This document shows, one piece after another, positions 5,495-49,913 of a DNA stretch of 64,000 bases. The position numbers and the translations under genes were made by a program. This stretch comes from a phage. Position 1 is the stretch's first letter; the number at the start of each line of letters is the position of its first letter. The stretch lies in assembly GCA_020773975.1 (NCBI GenBank), contig GCA_020773975.1_3638.1. The stretch is one strand, 5' to 3'. A model generated the notes under the pieces. That model ran no database searches and was not told where the DNA came from. It worked only from the letters and a program-made list of their open reading frames with translations.

Positions 5495-6841
5495 TTGAGT
5501 AAAGTATTTGGACCTGCCAGTCCTAAACAAAAAATGATTTTGGAGAGTAAAGCCCAAATTCTAATAATTGGCGGGGCCGCCGGGTGTTTGTCTAAAGACC
5601 ACGAGGTGTTGACACCATCTGGCTGGATTAAGATATCAGAATGGTCAGGGCAGGACATTCTGCAATATGATAAAGCCACTGGGGAGGCTAAATTTATCCC
5701 TCCTTTAGAGTTTGTTAAACTCCCTTGCGACAAACTTACAAGAATAGAAGGTAATGGCATTTGTCAAGAGCTATCTGACGAACATACTGTGATTTATAAA
5801 CCAGACTATAAATCACAGCCAAGAACACTTTCTTTTTCTGAAGTGGCAGAAAGACATAACAACTCTGTTAAAAAAGGTTGGACAGGTAAGTTCATAACTA
5901 CATTTAACTATGATGGGCCTGGGATAGACATGACAGAAGGGGAATTAAGGCTTCAGGTTGCTGTCATGGCTGATGGGAGAGTTGTTAAAGAAGGGAAAGA
6001 TAATTATACACAGATGCGCTTTGCTAAAAAGCGTAAATATGACCGCTTAATCGAACTTTGTAAAAAGTTTGGATTAAGATATGAAGACAGAGGATCAAAA
6101 CCCAGTGAAAGATATACCACTGGGGAACAGTACGAGGTCATTGTATGGCCTAAATATCCTGATAAAAAATTTACAGAGAAATACTATCAGTGTTCAAATG
6201 AACAACTGGAGATAATACTTGATGAGATTTTTCATTGGGATGGTTCTTTTTGTAAGCCATATGGCGGTAAAACACATAACAGCTTTACAGGTAGATATTT
6301 TACTGCTCATAAGACGAACGCTGATTTTATTCAGTTTGTAGGATCTTCTCTTGGTTATAATACCACCATAAGCCATGACACAAGAAGTGGAAAGGACAGT
6401 TATACTGTTAATATTATGGCTAGAGGAAAAGGATTAAGGTCACTGGCTAATAAAGACAGAAAAGCTGAGTTTAAAGCGTTTACACCTACGGATGGGTTTA
6501 AATACTGCTTTGTAACACAAACAGGTTTCTTTGTTACCAGACTGGAAGATTGTGTGGTTGTCACTGGGAATAGTGGAAAATCATATCTCCTACAATTGAT
6601 GCCGCTTGCTTATGTCGATGACCCGCAGACAGCATGTATAATGTTTCGTAGGACAACACCTCAATTGACAGGTGCAGGTGGACTTTTTGATACAGCGAAA
6701 AGTATTTATTTGCAACTCGATAAGGAATGGAAGCCGAAGTTCAGGGAGAAAGCTCTGGAAGCAATTTTCCCATCTGGGGCAAAGGTGTTGTGGAGACACA
6801 TGGAGTATGAGAATAACAAATTAGATCATCAGGGTGAATAG
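5495..6841 (+). CDS. terL: terminase large subunit, N-terminal coding segment (P-loop ATPase) containing an in-frame intein
   Basis: TTG start after GGAGG RBS; Walker A split as IIGGAAG-[intein]-SGKSY; lies directly upstream of portal; ORF runs to a stop inside intron-like sequence, real exon end probably 6817-6829. Confidence 0.7.
   Translation: MSKVFGPASPKQKMILESKAQILIIGGAAGCLSKDHEVLTPSGWIKISEWSGQDILQYDKATGEAKFIPPLEFVKLPCDKLTRIEGNGICQELSDEHTVIYKPDYKSQPRTLSFSEVAERHNNSVKKGWTGKFITTFNYDGPGIDMTEGELRLQVAVMADGRVVKEGKDNYTQMRFAKKRKYDRLIELCKKFGLRYEDRGSKPSERYTTGEQYEVIVWPKYPDKKFTEKYYQCSNEQLEIILDEIFHWDGSFCKPYGGKTHNSFTGRYFTAHKTNADFIQFVGSSLGYNTTISHDTRSGKDSYTVNIMARGKGLRSLANKDRKAEFKAFTPTDGFKYCFVTQTGFFVTRLEDCVVVTGNSGKSYLLQLMPLAYVDDPQTACIMFRRTTPQLTGAGGLFDTAKSIYLQLDKEWKPKFREKALEAIFPSGAKVLWRHMEYENNKLDHQGE
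5585..6571 (+). mobile_element. intein (329 aa) with LAGLIDADG-type endonuclease motifs in the terminase P-loop
   Basis: Starts with Cys (CLSKDHEVLTPSGW), ends VVVTGN followed by Ser; internal LQVAVMADG and LDEIFHWDG motifs; removal restores GGAAGSGKS. Confidence 0.7.
6809..6817 (+). repeat. 9-bp direct repeat GAGAATAAC (copy 1) flanking the terminase intervening region
   Basis: Identical 9-mer at 8778-8786; joining the copies puts exon 1 and the C-terminal segment in frame (MEYENN-PDYLAF). Confidence 0.5.
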
Positions 6842-7537
6842 CTTGCCCTTCGTGCCTATAACGGTGGAACTCCCTATGGGAAAATACCGTGCCACAGAAT
6901 ATGGAAATATAAACTCTGGGTGTAACGACTATCTCCGATGAGTGTAGGAGAGTAGAATCACAAGCGATTGGTGATCCAAACGGCACGCCAAGGATGGAAG
7001 ATATAGTCTGTTCCACATGGAAACATGTGGCGGGTGTTTTAGCACACCGCCTCAGTGTAGCGAACTGAGGGGACAATAAGTTGCAATATACCTTTATAGG
7101 TTTCGATGAGGGTAGAACAGTGTGCTCTCTATAAACCCCTTTAATTGACGGGTAACTCTTTATACATATCACCACTAAGTAGGTATGGTAACATATTTAT
7201 GGTCAACGGTAATGACGTTGAGTATAGTAACAGTGTGAATGTTTAGACAATCCGCAGCGAAGCATCCCTACGGGATGAACGTTCAACGACTATCGCTTAC
7301 GGGCGTTAGGGCCAAGCGGTGAGGGAAACCTCCGGTTGATTATCAACCGCCGAAACAGGGGGGTGTGTAATAACACACAAGATATAGTCTGATCTGCATG
7401 GTGACATGCAGCAGCACGTAGTGGTGCGGGATAAGAGTAGCGATCTTATCTGAACAAAAACGACACAATTCACATGGTCACAGATAGATTATCTGATATC
7501 TCGTCTACGTTCAAACTCTAAATATCCGAGCAGGATG
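6830..7537 (+). mobile_element. group I intron-like intervening sequence(s) in terminase, no ORF
   Basis: Conserved core elements: P-like AATTGACGGG (7143), Q AATCCGCAGC (7250), R GTTCAACGACTATC (7282), S AAGATATAGTCTGATC (7379); a second R/S-like pair at about 6926 and 7003. Confidence 0.55.
7381..7430 (+). repeat. 50-nt intron core block (S element to P9 region), copy 1
   Basis: GATATAGTCTGATCTGCATGGTGACATGCAGCAGCACGTAGTGGTGCGGG; second copy at 8674-8723 with 2 mismatches. Confidence 0.7.
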
Positions 7538-7773
7538 GTTATCTCTTGTAACCCTGATCCAGATCATAAGATCAAGGAGTTGATTTCTTGGTATTTAGAT
7601 GATGAGGGATATCCTATACCTGAACGCGATGGGGTGATTAGATGGTTTATAAGACGTGACGGGGAGTTTATCTGGGGTGAATCAGAGCAAGAATTAATTG
7701 AAAAGTATTGGGATGGCAAGGATGAGAAAAGAAAGCCTAAACCACTTTCATTTTCCTTCATTTCCGCAACCAT
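7538..7773 (+). CDS. possible internal terminase exon (or co-converted exon fragment), about 79 codons
   Basis: Open frame between intron-like regions (VISCNPDPDHKIKELISWYLDDEG...FISAT); LISWYLDDE resembles a Walker B strand; begins right after an intron-terminal ATG and ends at CCAT before a GTGG guide-like sequence; frame relation to downstream segment unresolved. Confidence 0.3.
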
Positions 7774-7902
7774 TAAAAGAATAGTGGCTTCATGCAGTAA
7801 TGCATGTCGAATAACTTCGTTAATTGCTGGGAAACCCTTTGTATAAGGGCAATCAGCAGCTATAATTACTTTTCCGAAACTGTAGTAGGGAGAATGTTTG
7901 AG

Positions 7903-8589
7903 ATGAAAAATTTAGGATTTTTAGGGTATTCCCATTATTGTGCGACGTATGATGGAAGAATTTATAGTTTGTATTCCCACAAATTTTTACATCCTAATGT
8001 CCATAAGAAAACTGGCTATGCAATGTTAACGTTGTGTGAGGATGGTAAAAAGTTTCAAGTTCTTGTCCATAGGGTTATTGCTTTTGCTTTTGTCGAGAAT
8101 GATAGCCCTGATACAAAAACTCAAGTGAACCATTTAGATGGAAACAAACTTAATAACGCAGCGTGGAATCTTGAGTGGACAACTGCAAAGGAAAACACAC
8201 ATCACGCACATGAAATAGGGCTTAAGAAGTCTTATGTAAACAGTTACAGGCCTCTTGATGATAACACTGCCCTTGAGATATGCAGATTACTTGAGCAGGG
8301 TGCTAGAGTAAAGGATATCAGTGAGATGTTTGGTATTGGGCAGACTGTGGTTAGTAGTATCAAAGCTGGGAGAGTCTACCCAGACATTTCTAAAGAGTTT
8401 AATTTCAGGATGGTTCCTTCTTCCAACAGAATTAGTGAATCCAAAGTTATAGGGATATGTGAAGATCTGAGAGACGGTATCCTAAGCATTAATAAGATAT
8501 CTAAAAAATGGGGTGTTAGTTTTAATCTTGTTAGAAGAATAAAAGATAGAAAAACTTACATCTATATCTCAAACAACTATGAATGGTAA
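7903..8589 (+). CDS. intron-encoded HNH homing endonuclease
   Basis: ATG 9 nt after GGGAGA (alternative ATG at 7894); N-terminal GYSHY..YDGRIYS NUMOD-like motif, HNH signature VNHLDGNKLNN...NLEW...ENTHHAH, C-terminal helix-turn-helix-like repeats. Confidence 0.65.
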   Translation: MKNLGFLGYSHYCATYDGRIYSLYSHKFLHPNVHKKTGYAMLTLCEDGKKFQVLVHRVIAFAFVENDSPDTKTQVNHLDGNKLNNAAWNLEWTTAKENTHHAHEIGLKKSYVNSYRPLDDNTALEICRLLEQGARVKDISEMFGIGQTVVSSIKAGRVYPDISKEFNFRMVPSSNRISESKVIGICEDLRDGILSINKISKKWGVSFNLVRRIKDRKTYIYISNNYEW

Positions 8590-8673
8590 TGTAGTTCAAC
8601 GACTATCCCGCAAGGGAGTAGATCGCAAGCTAATGGCGTTCGAAAAGCGAAGCACCCATTATGTGTGGGTGGT

Positions 8674-8723
8674 GATATAGTCTACTCTGCATGGTGACAT
8701 GCAGCAGCACGTAGTGGTGCGGG
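8674..8723 (+). repeat. 50-nt intron core block, copy 2
   Basis: GATATAGTCTACTCTGCATGGTGACATGCAGCAGCACGTAGTGGTGCGGG; near-identical to 7381-7430. Confidence 0.7.
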
Positions 8724-8771
8724 GGTTGGCGTTGCGTCCAACCTTGAATACAAGGATTCGATAATCCTCCC

Positions 8772-9557
8772 ATGCTGGAGAATAACCCAGATTATCTAGC
8801 ATTCCTTGAAGGTCTTCCAGAGGTAGAAAAAGCCCAGTTGTTGCATGGGAACTGGAACGCAAGACCTGAAGGGGCAAACTATTTCCAGAGATCTTATTTA
8901 AAAGAGGTTCCCTGCTTACCTCTCGGTGTTGTATCTGTTCGCCCGTATGATAAAGCAGGTACAGAAAGAACATCTGGAAACAGATATCCTGACTTTACAG
9001 CATCTGTTAAGGTAAGTAAAGACAATGATGGCTTTTACTACTTGTCTGGTGATTATTGTCCTGAATTTTTTGATGATGGTAGATATTCGACTCAAACGCA
9101 GGGAAGATTCTGTAAAAAAGCTGGGGAACGTGATGTTATCATTAAGAAACAGGCTTATTTTGATGGTGATGATGTCACTATAATTTTCAGTGTTGACCCA
9201 GGACAAGCAGGAATAAGTGAATTTTTAACAAGCTCTCGTGAACTAATAGCGGAAGGGTTTACAGTAGAAAAAGATCCTACACCAAGCAATAAATCAAAAT
9301 TAACACGATTCACACCGTTTGCAAAACTTGCTCAAGCAGGTATGGTGAGAATAGTTCGTGATAGTTTTGATCCTAAAACTTATGAAGCCCTTATGACAGA
9401 GCTTGAAAAGTTCAATGGGGAAAGGAGTACGACGACAAGAAAAGACGATTGGGTCGACGCCATTTCTTCTGGGATAAATTATCTTGAAAAAGAAGAAATA
9501 GTCAAACCTGTTGTTATTCCAAAAATTGTAGCTCCTACCTTGTATAAAAGAATATAA
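8772..9557 (+). CDS. terL: terminase large subunit, C-terminal coding segment (nuclease domain)
   Basis: ORF track; VTIIFSVDPGQAG and DDWVDAISSG resemble terminase nuclease acidic motifs; in frame with exon 1 across the GAGAATAAC repeats; real 5' boundary probably 8775-8790. Confidence 0.6.
   Translation: MLENNPDYLAFLEGLPEVEKAQLLHGNWNARPEGANYFQRSYLKEVPCLPLGVVSVRPYDKAGTERTSGNRYPDFTASVKVSKDNDGFYYLSGDYCPEFFDDGRYSTQTQGRFCKKAGERDVIIKKQAYFDGDDVTIIFSVDPGQAGISEFLTSSRELIAEGFTVEKDPTPSNKSKLTRFTPFAKLAQAGMVRIVRDSFDPKTYEALMTELEKFNGERSTTTRKDDWVDAISSGINYLEKEEIVKPVVIPKIVAPTLYKRI
8778..8786 (+). repeat. 9-bp direct repeat GAGAATAAC (copy 2)
   Basis: Identical to 6809-6817; see copy 1. Confidence 0.5.
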
Positions 9558-9572
9558 CAGAGGGGATAATTC

Positions 9573-11114
9573 GTGTCAACAAGATTTGCACAACAAGAAG
9601 AGATTTCTAAAGCAGGTAATGAGAGACTTGCTGTTAGTCGTCTTCGCACCGGAGAGTTAGGCTCTGGTGCTCTTTCTCAACTTAGGGCTGAATCAGAGAT
9701 TATGAAAGTTAAGGAGTTGAGATGGCCTAATTTCATCGCCACTGTTGAAGCCATGAAGCAAGACCATACAGTTTCCACAGCCCTTGATACAAAGTATGTC
9801 TTTGTAACTAAAGCATTCAATGATTTTAAAATCTTGTATAACAGAGATAGCAGAAAATCTAAGAAAGCTGCTGAGTTTGTGGAGTATGCGCTGAAGAATC
9901 TTGCTAACCAACAAACTCTACGTGACATAGCCCGAAGCGCAGCAACGTTCAATGAGTATGGGTTTTCGATATTTGAAAAAGTTTATCGTACTGAGCCAGA
10001 GACTTCAAGGTATGCTGGGTATATTACGATTGATAAAATTGCATTCAGGCCACAGTGCAGTCTTTCTAGATCAAAGCCTTGGGTATTTGATGCCGATGGT
10101 AAGACGCTGAAGGGCATTAACCAAAGCAGTTTGGCTTTCTCCAATTTACAAAACGGAATGCTGGGGGATACTTTAAACATTATCCGTAAATTGACTAATG
10201 GTGATGATGTTTTTATTCCAGTTAATAAGTTGATGATAATGAGTTTGGGGGGTACGGAATCCAACCCTGCTGGGTTATCACCTTTGGTTGGTTGTTATAG
10301 GGCATTCCGAGAGAAGATCCTTATAGAAAATTTGGAGACTATCGGAGCATCTAAAGATCTTGGTGGTATCATAGAACTTAAGATACCCTCCCAGATCCTT
10401 AATAAAGCAGCAATAGACCCAACATCACCAGAAGCTGCTATGGTGCAAGGACTAATGGCAGATGCTGCAAACGCACACGCTGGGGAACAAGCCTATTTTA
10501 TCTTACCATCTGACCTCAATAATCAAGGTGGTAAACAATATGAAATGTCCCTTAAAGGGATCGATGGCGCAGGTAAACAATACAGCACACAAGAGCTTGT
10601 TAACTCTCGCAAGAAGGCTATTCTTGATCGTTTTGGTGCGGGGTTTATTAACTTAGGTAACGATGGGCAAGGATCTTATAATCTTTCAGAATCAAAACAA
10701 ACTATTCATGGTCATTTTGTCCAGAGAGATATTGATATTATTGTTGAGGCGTTCAATAAGAACTTAATACCTCAACTTCTTGCTTTGAACGATATAAGAT
10801 TGTCTGACGAAGATATGCCAAGACTGAAACCTGGGCTTATTCAAGAAGTCGATATGGAAGGCTTCTCTAAATTTGTTCAGCGTATTGGTGCTGTTGGGTA
10901 TTTGCCTAAAACACCTACAGTTATTAATAAAATTCTTGAGGTTGGTGGCTTTGACGAAGAAATCCCTGAAGATATGGAGCTTGATGAATTGTTGCAAATT
11001 CTTGGTCAGGATGTAAGCCGTTCTGGAGATGGTATGACACCAGGATCAACAGGTAACGGAACATCAAAAATATCTACTGTCAGGGATAATTCTGTTTCTA
11101 ATTTAGAGAATTAA
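9573..11114 (+). CDS. putative portal protein (513 aa)
   Basis: GTG start after GAGGGGA; size and position immediately downstream of terminase; acidic C-terminal tail. Confidence 0.5.
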   Translation: MSTRFAQQEEISKAGNERLAVSRLRTGELGSGALSQLRAESEIMKVKELRWPNFIATVEAMKQDHTVSTALDTKYVFVTKAFNDFKILYNRDSRKSKKAAEFVEYALKNLANQQTLRDIARSAATFNEYGFSIFEKVYRTEPETSRYAGYITIDKIAFRPQCSLSRSKPWVFDADGKTLKGINQSSLAFSNLQNGMLGDTLNIIRKLTNGDDVFIPVNKLMIMSLGGTESNPAGLSPLVGCYRAFREKILIENLETIGASKDLGGIIELKIPSQILNKAAIDPTSPEAAMVQGLMADAANAHAGEQAYFILPSDLNNQGGKQYEMSLKGIDGAGKQYSTQELVNSRKKAILDRFGAGFINLGNDGQGSYNLSESKQTIHGHFVQRDIDIIVEAFNKNLIPQLLALNDIRLSDEDMPRLKPGLIQEVDMEGFSKFVQRIGAVGYLPKTPTVINKILEVGGFDEEIPEDMELDELLQILGQDVSRSGDGMTPGSTGNGTSKISTVRDNSVSNLEN

Positions 11115-46883: not shown

Positions 46884-47183
46884 TTAGTGAGAATCTGCCC
46901 ATGTGTATCCACAAAGATATTCTCCTGTAATTAAAACTGGAAGCCCCATTATCTTAGATGCTTTTTCTACACATTTTGTTGCAAGCTCTCCTACTGGGCA
47001 ATGCAGTATCCTGTATTTCCCATACACATCAGGTTCAACAATAACTCTACCCGCTTTCACATAATGTCCGTCGAAACGATGACCTTTTTCAAGCATCATA
47101 TCTACATAGCTTTGTGCCGCCTCTAAGTTAGAATGCTCCGTTATTGATTTAAATCTTTCCGGTACTTGTACCTGTATCTCATC
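46884..47183 (-). CDS. DNA polymerase (family A), exon 2 (motif C to C-terminus)
   Basis: Begins DEIQVQV (motif C HDE completed by exon 1 His) and ends ...GYTWADSH like Pol I-type C-termini. Confidence 0.65.
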   Translation of the reverse strand, partial: DEIQVQVPERFKSITEHSNLEAAQSYVDMMLEKGHRFDGHYVKAGRVIVEPDVYGKYRILHCPVGELATKCVEKASKIMGLPVLITGEYLCGYTWADSH

Positions 47184-47492
47184 CATCAGTTCAGAGAGTT
47201 CGTTACGCTCTCCCGCACCATTACGTGCATAGCCACAAGATTTCTCCTGTGGGTCGGACTATCTCATCCTCCTGATATTAAGGAGGCCTCCCGTTTCGAC
47301 CGCACTTGCTGGCCTACTCTACTCGCTTTCACATTACTAGTGTGCTTTCGATAGTCTCTGAACGTTCATCCCATAGGGATGCTTCGCTGCGGATTAGCAT
47401 ATTGAACTTTTGCTACTTTTACGTATAAAAGCCAGCTTAGCCTTCCCGTCAATTAGAGAGGTTTTCGACATGCATTACTGCATGAAGCCACA
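47184..47492 (-). mobile_element. group I intron (about 309 nt, no ORF) in the DNA polymerase gene
   Basis: On coding strand: exon ends CCAT, GTGG guide-like sequence 10 nt in, P AATTGACGGGAA, Q AATCCGCAGC, R GTTCAGAGACTATC, S GAGATAGTCC, terminal G before GATGAG; splicing restores VIYYH-DEIQV. Confidence 0.6.
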
Positions 47493-49913
47493 ATGTTATT
47501 TATGGTAGTAGATAACCCTCCTGACACCTTGGTCGTACCATCCCCATTTCACCAATTCCCAATGGAACAGGACTCCCATGAGGTCAAACAATGAAGCACC
47601 ACCGTTTTGTTGGTAAGCATTCAGCAGAGAATGTTTAGAACGAGTCCAAATTTTACGCCCGTCCATGCCTGGAATATAGCGTCTCCCATTTGCCTCCCAG
47701 AATTTTTCCAACCACTCCCTACGCATTTTCAACCCGAAGTTACTATCCCAGAATGCATCTATTACAGCCTGTGCTCTATTAAGGGGGATACCCAGCATTG
47801 CGGCTATCTTAGGAGCTTGTGCTCCATACATAATTCCATACGTAACCCCCTTTCCTCCAGAGCGTGTTACCTCCTTTCCTGCTGCTATTGTGTATGCTCT
47901 TGCGTTTCGTTCATGGGCATCCTCTTCCATCATGATACGTAAATACTCACCACCATCAAACTCAAAAGCCCCTGCCGCTGCAATCATACCTTCTAAGTTA
48001 GATCCATCACAACCCATCAGGTAGTAGCCTTCAGGGACTGTCCAAAGACCCCGCATTTCTTTTCCCAACAAAACCTTCGGATCAGGCTTGGGCATGTTTG
48101 CGCAAACAGTATGCTTGCACCTGCCCGTGTTAGTGATTCCAGAAAAACGTGCTGGAAGTTTTCCGTCAATGTCTAAACGAGGGTGATTTAATAACCCTGT
48201 ATCCGTCTTATCCTCATCCATTGGGTCTAAAACAGATCGCCTGTTACGAAGTGATAGCCACTTAACAATCTGTTTTGCCATATGCACATCAATTTTCTCC
48301 AAATTTGGACACAGATGCCCAAAATTATCTTTTAATTGAGGAGATGTCGGTAACTGGCGTGCTTTACGCCGAAATTTCTTAAATATCTCTGAATAACCCC
48401 TTTCAGATGCATGGCGATGGTCAAACTTACGCTCTGAAATGTTGAATTTCTCATCTGAATCATTAAGGTAGTCAAGAATAAGAGATTTATACTCAGACTC
48501 TGCCAACTCTTCTATGTACTTCTTAACTAGTACATCAATTTCAGAATCTTCACGAGTCTTTTTAAATTGATCCTTAGTAACATCTTTTACGCGCCACAGT
48601 GTAGGTTTCCAACCAGCATCTTTGATCAAATATTTTTTAATATCATCCTGATTAGAGATTTTCATTGGAACCATTAAATCTGGCATTTTTCTGTTTCGAA
48701 GGTCTTCTTTAGCCTTCTCTAGAAGATCCGGCGGTAAAGGTTCGAGTGTGTTCTCTTTGGTTCGCTGGGAACGAATGAAATCACCGTATAAAGCCGGATC
48801 TTCAATGCCATTCTGGATGCAATATCTCTCCCCTGCTGCACTTACATCCCCATTGCTCTTAAAAGCTGTTTTTGGTGGAGCTTTAAACTCCAGAGCTTCC
48901 CTGTTAACAGGATAGCCAAGTTTATATTCCAACCAATTCCACCCATGATGAGATATATTACCCGCTGTGTCAAAAGGGTTAGCTGGGAATTTTGGTTGTT
49001 GAGATTTCGTCATCTCTTTTTTTGGAAGAAGTGGTTCTACCTCTTCTTCAATTTCTCGCATCATCTTATCTATGCGATCTCTTAATTTTTCTGCCTCCTC
49101 CCGATTAAAGTATACGCCTTGTATTTCTTGCTCTATCATCAAATAGTCTGTGAGCATTCTCCTACGTAATGCATTTTTCCAATTAATCTGGTGCATCCCG
49201 TGAGGTTTATCAGTGTACATAAACTGCTTGTCATCAGGCCATCGCGTACCATTTGACTCATCAATAAGAGCTTTCCACACAAGTTCGTTAATGATAACGT
49301 CTTCCCACACACGGTTTACATATTCCCACAATGGCTGATTACGCCAATCATCAATCTGCACTTTCTTGTTTGCTACACGATAACCCCATGCCAATAAGCC
49401 GTGTGGCCCAACCCTGTCACGTTTTCCTGTTACAGGGTTCAATACAGAATCTGGGCAGCCATTAGGCAATGGGCGATCTGGGTAAAGAACACGACTCATT
49501 GAAAGAGTGTCGTAAAGATTTACCTGTTTATTACCTATCGTCCCCATACATTTTAGGTCTTTGAACATGTCATATTCAATCCCAGAAAGTTTTTTCCACA
49601 GACGTAAATCATAGCCGAACAGGTTATGTATTGCTATCCCTCTTGGCTCGGTCTGCAACCAAGAGTAAAAATCATCATAAGAAAGGATACGTAAATTAAC
49701 ACCTTCTTTGCTGCGTGCAAAATTAACTGCACTCTGGTATTCCTTGTGAGCAGGATCGAGAAACAACACCCAGTTATTTACAGCATATTCTTTAAAAAGT
49801 GTGCAGTGATATTTAGTTGCCTCTTCTAATAATCCGTCAGCTTCGTTATCTCCGACAAAAAGCCCTTTCATACTCCTCCTATTCAAGATGGGCTTGACTG
49901 TATCGTCGCCCAT
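47493..49913 (-). CDS. DNA polymerase (family A), exon 1
   Basis: Pol I-like motif B RSGGKGVTYGIMYG and pre-motif C NAYQQNGGASLFDLMGVLF...RRVIYYH; ORF track stop lies within the intron. Confidence 0.7.

Follow-up and report, generated by a model that had tools for sequence, protein, structure and literature searches.

This analysis concerns the genes for the large terminase subunit (terL) and the family A DNA polymerase in a phage contig (GCA_020773975.1_3638.1, NCBI GenBank assembly GCA_020773975.1), of which a stretch of 64,000 nucleotides (nt), here called the window, was analysed. Both genes are split, terL by three intervening sequences, named introns A, B and C in their order, and the polymerase gene, on the other strand, by one, named P (Table 1); near-identical blocks of sequence recur among B, C and P, and it is the origin of these blocks that is discussed below. 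By genome comparison the source is a Vequintavirinae coliphage, the closest public genomes being vB_EcoM_TH18, 18-1-2, 19-1-2 and 24-2-1 (~98.7% identity) and Av-05 (~99%); the set A, B, C and P was not found together in any public genome compared.

Table 1. Exons, introns and shared blocks of the two split genes, in window coordinates. A slash marks an intron position; group I assignments are predictions graded in the text; ORF, open reading frame.
Feature	Coordinates	Strand	Basis or content
Terminase large subunit, exon 1	5495..6835	+	ORF; junction HQG/LQY contiguous in intron-less KE22, BP9
Intron A, 245 nt, group I, no ORF	6836..7080	+	Rfam Intron_gpI 33.8 bits; HQG/LQY junction
Terminase micro-exon (33 nt)	7081..7113	+	Comparison with B-less TH18 and protein alignment
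Intron B, 349 nt, group I, no ORF, no P2	7114..7462	+	Rfam 67.9 bits; FDEG/TQF junction
Shared block 2, intron B	7249..7295	+	P4 3′ strand (Q), P6 hairpin, P7 5′ strand (R)
Shared block 3, intron B	7381..7430	+	P7 3′ strand (S), P9 hairpin with GUGA loop, P9.1
Terminase exon 3	7463..7773	+	In-frame spliced coding sequence, protein alignment
Intron C, 982 nt, group I, ORF in P6	7774..8755	+	Rfam halves; junction SAT-I-FDN (inside Ile codon)
Shared block 1, intron C	7784..7811	+	Guide GUGG and P2 hairpin, GUAA loop (CAUGCA-GUAA-UGCAUG)
HNH homing endonuclease gene (228 aa), predicted	7903..8589	+	Between Q and R (P6) of intron C
Shared block 3, intron C	8674..8723	+	P7 3′ strand, P9, P9.1
Terminase exon 4	8756..9557	+	ORF, in-frame spliced coding sequence, protein alignment
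DNA polymerase gene (family A)	46884..49913	-	Exon 1 49913-47502, exon 2 47183-46884
Intron P, 318 nt, group I, no ORF	47184..47501	-	Rfam 81.2 bits; splits the catalytic motif YYH/DE (motif C)
Shared block 2, intron P	47349..47395	-	Q-P6-R
Shared block 1, intron P	47464..47491	-	Guide sequence and P2

Two split genes and their introns

Uninterrupted terminase genes are found in Salmonella phage KE22 and Escherichia phage BP9, and uninterrupted polymerase genes in phages F5M1E and nomo; the comparison with intron-less homologues, which the initial annotation had proposed as the way to define the insertion sites, fixed all four junctions, each of them being exact in alignments of the spliced proteins. 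The reading frames are restored without interruption once all introns are removed, and the conceptually spliced terL coding sequence, of 2487 nt, is in frame. The junction at P is contiguous in F5M1E and nomo, and that at C in KE22, BP9, HMD-6 and APECc02. Exactly the stretch of intron B is absent from TH18, which reads ...GAT GAG GGA ACA CAA... across the gap. Intron A is absent from KE22, BP9 and rV5 and is found only in the TH18 group, in copies 98.8% identical.

Group I identity was tested with the Rfam covariance model Intron_gpI (RF00028), which has a gathering score of 50; relaxed thresholds were used for A and for the halves of C. Intron B is matched over 7086-7411 (plus strand, 67.9 bits) and P over 47236-47511 (minus strand, 81.2 bits), and a natural orthologue of C without ORF, in phage WM, reaches 92.7 bits. 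The initial annotation had counted three group I introns; B, C and P retain that assignment, and a probable fourth that it had missed, A (6836-7080), is added to them. No further group I intron was found when the whole 64-kb window was scanned at relaxed thresholds. All four introns follow a U able to pair with a guide G, and all four end in G. P1 is formed by AGGGU and GCCCU in A (U.G at the splice site), by GAGGGU and GCUCUC in B, and by CCAU and GUGG in both C and P; P10 is formed by ACAC and GUGU in B, by AUUC and GAAU in C, and by GAUG and CAUU in P. In all four, two hairpins separate the 5′ strand of P7 from the 3′ strand of P3, a mark of subgroup IA.

The fold was examined by covariation in P, for which five orthologues (window, TH18, JEP1, HMD-6 and rV5) were aligned. 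Unguided, RNAalifold returned P1, P2, P4, P5, P5a, P6, P7, P7.2, P8, P9, P9.1 and P9.2; with the P3 pseudoknot added, 97.6% of the cells are paired (P3 93%, P7 97%, P7.2 100%). Compensatory changes on both sides occur in 20 of 77 pairs, as against 1 to 4 when the partners are slid by 1 to 3 columns, and the observed values were reached by none of 500 shuffles; P1 is invariant in all five. Orthologues of P, 77-86% identical, occupy the same codon, and in Av-05 and FV3 P carries an HNH ORF. A second polymerase intron, P0 (734 nt, with ORF, at GITYG/IMYG), is found in TH18 and Av-05 and is absent from the window.

Among the introns of the window only C contains an endonuclease gene. Its product matches Pfam HNH_3 with 30.7 bits (cut-off 24.8), gives weak matches to helix-turn-helix families, and over residues 8-102 matches PDB entry 1U3E (“HNH homing endonuclease”) with E 7.6e-11; the entry is one that we take to be I-HmuI, the polymerase-intron endonuclease of phage SPO1. 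The records of TH18 and rV5 annotate the same gene as HNH homing endonuclease, and the ORF is predicted to encode an I-HmuI-like HNH nicking endonuclease. Orthologues of C are 84% identical in WM and 85% in the 3′ half of rV5's own copy, and rV5 shares the same HNH gene. At the C site, intron-less alleles read ACA ATA or ACA ATT in rV5-type phages and ACT ATC in KE22, where the window reads ACC AT/A.

Intron B is polymorphic among close relatives, as a mobile intron would be: the window and Av-05 have it, and TH18 does not. Orthologues stand at the same site in rV5 (68% identity), HMD-6 and APECc02, and in APECc02 and others B has an ORF annotated as endonuclease VII. Intron-less alleles have GGA or GGC at this site, not GGT, so that the U at position -1 is missing (the last exon base is A or C). 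At the B and C sites alike, the departures of intron-less alleles fall exactly on bases of P1. Between the window and TH18 the micro-exon upstream of B differs at 6 of its 33 positions, all synonymously, where the flanks differ by ~1.5%; to judge from these sequences, the six-difference tract looks like the pattern expected from co-conversion during homing.

The micro-exon between A and B encodes LQYTFIGFDEG, which is the Walker B motif. Because the guide of B (GCUCUC) can pair at five of six positions with the exon end preceding A (CAGGGU), in-frame skipping of the 33-nt micro-exon is conceivable. Parallels for such skipping are offered by Twort orf142 and SIOphi terL; from the Bastillevirinae, terL genes are reported that have 2-3 introns and small internal exons and undergo exon skipping, as does Twort orf142 (PMC11878797).

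Terminase exon 1 further contains an intein-like insert of 329 aa (5585-6571), which splits the Walker A motif GGAAG/SGKS (GGAAG/C...VVTGN/SGKS). TH18 shares the insert, and KE22, BP9 and rV5 lack it; it matched no Pfam family, and the PDB search gave a weak intein match only (E 0.087).

The shared blocks and their conservation

By string comparison the two copies of block 3 (7381-7430 in B, 8674-8723 in C) are identical at 48 of 50 positions, those of block 1 (7784-7811 in C, 47491-47464 on the minus strand in P) at 28 of 28, and those of block 2 (7249-7295 in B, 47395-47349 on the minus strand in P) at 44 of 47. A short-word self-BLAST of 6800-8800 against the whole window returned these three blocks as the only significant repeats, and dinucleotide-preserving shuffles of the window gave 0.00 expected chance matches to the 50-mer and the 28-mer, even at three mismatches. 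On this the initial annotation, which had read the blocks by eye, is borne out: a 50-nt block occurs twice in the terminase region with two mismatches, the 26-nt 5′ block common to the terminase intron (7786-7811) and the polymerase intron (47464-47489) is identical at all 26 positions and extends to 28, and a Q-R core is common to terminase and polymerase introns; checked by self-BLAST and string comparison, the blocks are neither shorter nor more divergent than had been read. Its structural reading is equally sound, the 50-nt block, described as S element through P9, containing the P7 3′ strand (S), P9 and P9.1, and the 47-nt block being the Q-P6-R core. The three blocks are ribozyme modules, namely the internal guide sequence (IGS) with P2, P4′-P6-P7, and P7′-P9-P9.1.

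The annotation had also stated that both homing sites end in CCAT, and this is true of the 5′ exons of C and P: the terminase exon ends in ...GCAACCAT/TAAAAG at 7773/7774, and the polymerase exon in ...TACTACCAT/AAATAA at 47502/47501. Intron B is preceded by GAGGGT, not CCAT. The common ending is due to the common guide sequence of C and P, in which GUGG pairs with CCAU.

What did not stand was the proposal of a close kinship among the introns and of their spread inside this genome. Compared over their full length without the ORF, B and C are 54% identical, B and P 60% and C and P 60% (A against the others 50-57%), and foreign introns match the blocks equally well or better. Between the 3′ halves of B and C identity is 65%, and between these halves and the nrdD intron of Phapecoctavirus nieznany, a phage of a different subfamily, it is 66-67%; the 50-mer of B matches this nrdD intron at 49 of 50 positions, against 48 of 50 for C of the same genome. 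Its first 32 nt are matched in full (32/32) by the td intron region of the T-even phage RB3, and at 96.9% by the nrdD intron region of T4. The 50-nt block is present in 560 phage records, and its P9-P9.1 part in 11 diverse contigs of IMG/VR with differing flanking exons. The P2 hairpin occurs in A-U and G-C variants behind other guide sequences in unrelated viral contigs, and the Q-P6-R block is matched at 40 of 44 positions (~91%) by an intron of an Alteromonas phage, which is the same figure as for rV5-type B.

The sites, too, are occupied in phages of other genera. Among Vequintavirus phages, rV5 has introns at B, C and P, HMD-6 at B and P, WM at C and P, and JEP1 and FV3 at P. These orthologous introns, 68-86% identical to those of the window, imply that the introns predate this genome. 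By their sequences, the introns would be long-standing residents of these sites or would have arrived by homing between phages, and family-wide conservation of modules, not recent duplication, appears to explain most of the near-identity of the blocks. On the observed sequence, structure, exon continuity and distribution among phages, A, B, C and P are very probably group I introns of IA type, presumably self-splicing and of one family with the td and nrdD introns of T4, and their blocks mostly modules conserved throughout that family.

Several points weigh against this reading. That each intron is spliced in this phage we infer from sequence, and the P1 of C and P comprises only 4 to 6 base pairs. 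The Rfam match of A (6780-7030, 33.8 bits, E 2.3e-6) lies below the gathering score, and covariation cannot be counted for A because only near-identical copies are known; its minimum free energy fold recovers P1, P3, P4, P5, P6, P7.1, P7.2, P9, P9.1 and P9.2 (z = -2.56). In the window C is found as two Rfam halves of 21.4 and 31.6 bits, both sub-threshold, the split being caused by its 687-nt ORF. As to the blocks, the Q-P6-R block of B is identical at 47 of 47 positions to the TH18 polymerase intron and at 40 of 44 to rV5-type B, and the sequence GTAGTGG in P9.1 is common to window B, window C and TH18 C. Some near-identities thus exceed what family conservation provides, and conservation is not the whole story.

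Alternative origins of the block identity

Both of these block comparisons favour the strongest competing explanation, in which non-allelic introns, within one genome or in co-infection, owe the identity of their blocks mainly to ectopic gene conversion; its chances may be put a little short of even. Such conversion would parallel in nature the shuffling of domains known from the td and nrdB introns of T4. In its favour, the apex of P6 follows the lineage and not the site: the lineage of the window, TH18 and Av-05 has GCAUCCC-UAY-GGGAUG in B and P, and rV5-type phages have GCAUCC-GAGA-GGAUG in these two introns, HMD-6 carrying both in one genome. An identical stretch of 26 nt is common to P7.2 of B and to P0, where rV5-type B has a short hairpin, and the 24-mer tested from P7.2 occurs, within IMG/VR, in Av-05 only, there in both B and P0. 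The P9.1 variant GTAGTGG was not found in rV5, WM, the 11 IMG/VR contigs or nieznany. Further, the P introns of the window and of TH18 are unlike each other in P8 and in both strands of P7, although their exons are ~95% identical. Against conversion as the main cause stand the quartet site patterns, which give no signal overall and of which the lineage type numbers 2-4, comparable with the noise given by the third pattern (0-6), and the orthology type 35-44. The 50-mer and P2 are conserved family-wide, and their identity needs no conversion; moreover, the P2 variants of C and P are discordant in one IMG/VR genome and in rV5, and the change from A-U to G-C in P2 may arise in parallel via a G.U intermediate.

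Two narrower candidates for exchange were considered and downgraded. The first was concerted evolution of the 28-nt block, since the P2 pair CAUGCA and UGCAUG of this lineage, as opposed to CGUGCA and UGCACG in rV5-type phages, was at first read as lineage-specific; a third P2 variant in P of rV5, the discordant IMG/VR genome and the occurrence of both variants behind other guides led to its being downgraded. The second was a conversion from C to B for the 50-nt block, where B matches window C at 48 of 50 positions, rV5 C at 44 of 50 and rV5 B at 41 of 51; given the 49 of 50 in the nrdD intron of nieznany and the presence of P9-P9.1 in the 11 contigs, only the GTAGTGG variant still favours it. 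Occasional recombination between non-allelic introns, as a more limited proposal read from the sequences, is likewise put forward tentatively, at somewhat less than an even chance.

Quite unlikely is a link between C and P by guide-directed ectopic transposition, either by reverse splicing into an RNA whose end is ACCAU with subsequent recombination of the complementary DNA, or by illegitimate integration of DNA that is kept where P1 forms. What gives the idea its appeal is that the guide GUGG, P2 and the 5′ exon pentamer ACCAU are identical in two unrelated genes and that, in the IMG/VR contigs and GenBank phages examined, the module of GUGG and P2 is found only at the C site of terL and the P site of pol, always after ACCAT. 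The P10-forming bases just 5′ of the 28-nt block differ between C and P and fit the 3′ exon of each intron, and A and B likewise share an exon pentamer, AGGGU; this is in keeping with introns that settle where a site suits their guide. Beyond the 5′ module, C and P are 60% identical, no closer than to other members of the family; P1 is short, and chance could bring about the agreement of the codon contexts ACC AT. and TAC CAT in about 1 in 256 per pair. The RNA route, the DNA route and a transfer of the 5′ module alone are inseparable by these data, and for reverse splicing direct evidence is lacking according to a review (PMC3984707). An extended version, in which such a transposition of C and P is accompanied by continual reshuffling, domain by domain, of the whole intron set among non-allelic introns, is unlikely; if it were true, protein-coding genes of phages would offer a case in nature of two processes whose support has so far come mainly from laboratory work or ribosomal DNA.

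It is very unlikely that one intron was recently copied to three sites in this genome, the blocks being the remains of a common origin. The near-identity of the blocks and the guide sequence and exon ending ACCAT common to C and P would suit such an origin. It is contradicted by the full-length identities, which about equal that to the nrdD intron of an unrelated phage, by the similarity of the blocks to foreign introns, as great or greater, and by the orthologues at the same sites; identity also drops sharply at the edges of the blocks, with no even decay. Finally, that the blocks are repeated regulatory or protein-binding DNA elements and not parts of introns has nothing but the repetition itself in its favour and is hardly credible, as they map exactly onto helices of a group I fold supported by covariation and sit inside stretches missing from intron-less alleles.

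If family-wide conservation with occasional exchange is accepted, a course of events may be deduced from the sequences in which both homing and recombination of these introns would have a part. Each intron would select its 5′ splice site by a guide sequence that pairs with the last exon bases (P1, with the U.G wobble at the junction). The introns would spread by homing between co-infecting phages, and C would encode a nicking endonuclease of the I-HmuI-like HNH type; no ORF is present here in A, B or P, endonuclease-carrying versions of B and P being known in relatives. Occasional recombination between non-allelic introns would then yield mosaics, the clearest being B, which agrees with P of its own lineage in the P6 apex and with P0 of relatives in P7.2.

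Comparison with known phage introns

The closest model is provided by the td, nrdD (sunY) and nrdB introns of T4 and the T-even phages (IA2), which have the same group I fold with P7.1, P7.2, P9.1 and P9.2, and of which several homologous copies with common core blocks reside in one genome. Shared sequence blocks among the three T4 introns were reportedly described by Shub et al. in 1988 (PNAS), and recombination between the td and nrdB introns at shared blocks is said to have been found by Bryk and Belfort in 1990 (Nature). In contrast to the T-even phages, the host genes here are those of the terminase and DNA polymerase and not of nucleotide metabolism, the endonuclease is of the HNH (I-HmuI-like) and not of the GIY-YIG type (I-TevI, I-TevII), and three introns and an intein would reside in one gene. 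A DNA polymerase gene split by a group I intron is a likeness to SPO1-type phages, as is the similarity of the intron C endonuclease to I-HmuI; unlike the phage described here, SPO1, Twort and the Bastillevirinae infect Gram-positive hosts, and their intron sequences differ.

Within the subfamily to which the phage of the window belongs, Kropinski et al. 2013 (PMC3606486) described terL of rV5 as consisting of three segments, with a homing endonuclease, and in Certrevirus CB7 reverse transcription-polymerase chain reaction demonstrated that the introns of terL and pol are spliced (PMC7344957). rV5 has orthologues of B and C at the same codons; the window differs from it by the addition of intron A, the 33-nt micro-exon and the intein-like insert, and its B differs from that of rV5 in the P6 apex, P7.2 and P9.1. 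As far as found, the papers on rV5 (PMC3606486) and CB7 (PMC7344957) contain no analysis of similarity between introns. The biology of the locus is ordinary, terminase and polymerase introns having already been published for the relatives rV5 (terminase) and CB7 (both).

Some observations concern public records and the surroundings of the two genes. The Av-05 record KM190144 (1-1579, compared with 7114-9700 of the window) starts inside intron B; in it the segment bounded by the two P9 hairpins runs in the opposite direction to that of the window (junctions ~7400/8695 and ~7409/8687), and the HNH ORF portion is missing. A misassembly at the palindromic shared block is the probable cause. With the Av-05 terminase region rearranged at the P9 hairpins, TH18 and rV5 were used as comparators instead. 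Many GenBank records of the series MG0656xx, labelled “Campylobacter phage”, match the rV5-type terminase-intron region, with ~75% identity to the window, as closely as genuine rV5-type coliphages; they resemble Vequintavirus genomes, and mislabelling or contamination is the probable explanation. In the window about 11 transfer RNA (tRNA) genes are clustered at 421-2686, upstream of the lysis and terminase region; antisense Rfam matches to plastid untranslated-region families on these same tRNAs are spurious.

For annotation, the analysis means that the large terminase is one gene of four exons, not 3-4 separate “terminase” ORFs as in the records of relatives, that the polymerase is one gene of two exons, and that the terminase appears to carry an intein; for assembly, that the shared blocks are long and palindromic enough to cause confusion. 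There is also a more general caution: near-identical blocks of 30-50 nt between introns of one genome can be family-conserved ribozyme modules and not traces of recent copying. What remains of specialist interest is modest and concerns the mosaic structure of intron B and the guide that C and P have in common. If the interpretation holds, the P6 apex and P7.2 patches, together with the guide of C and P, would constitute a small natural data set on how group I introns exchange domains and choose their sites.

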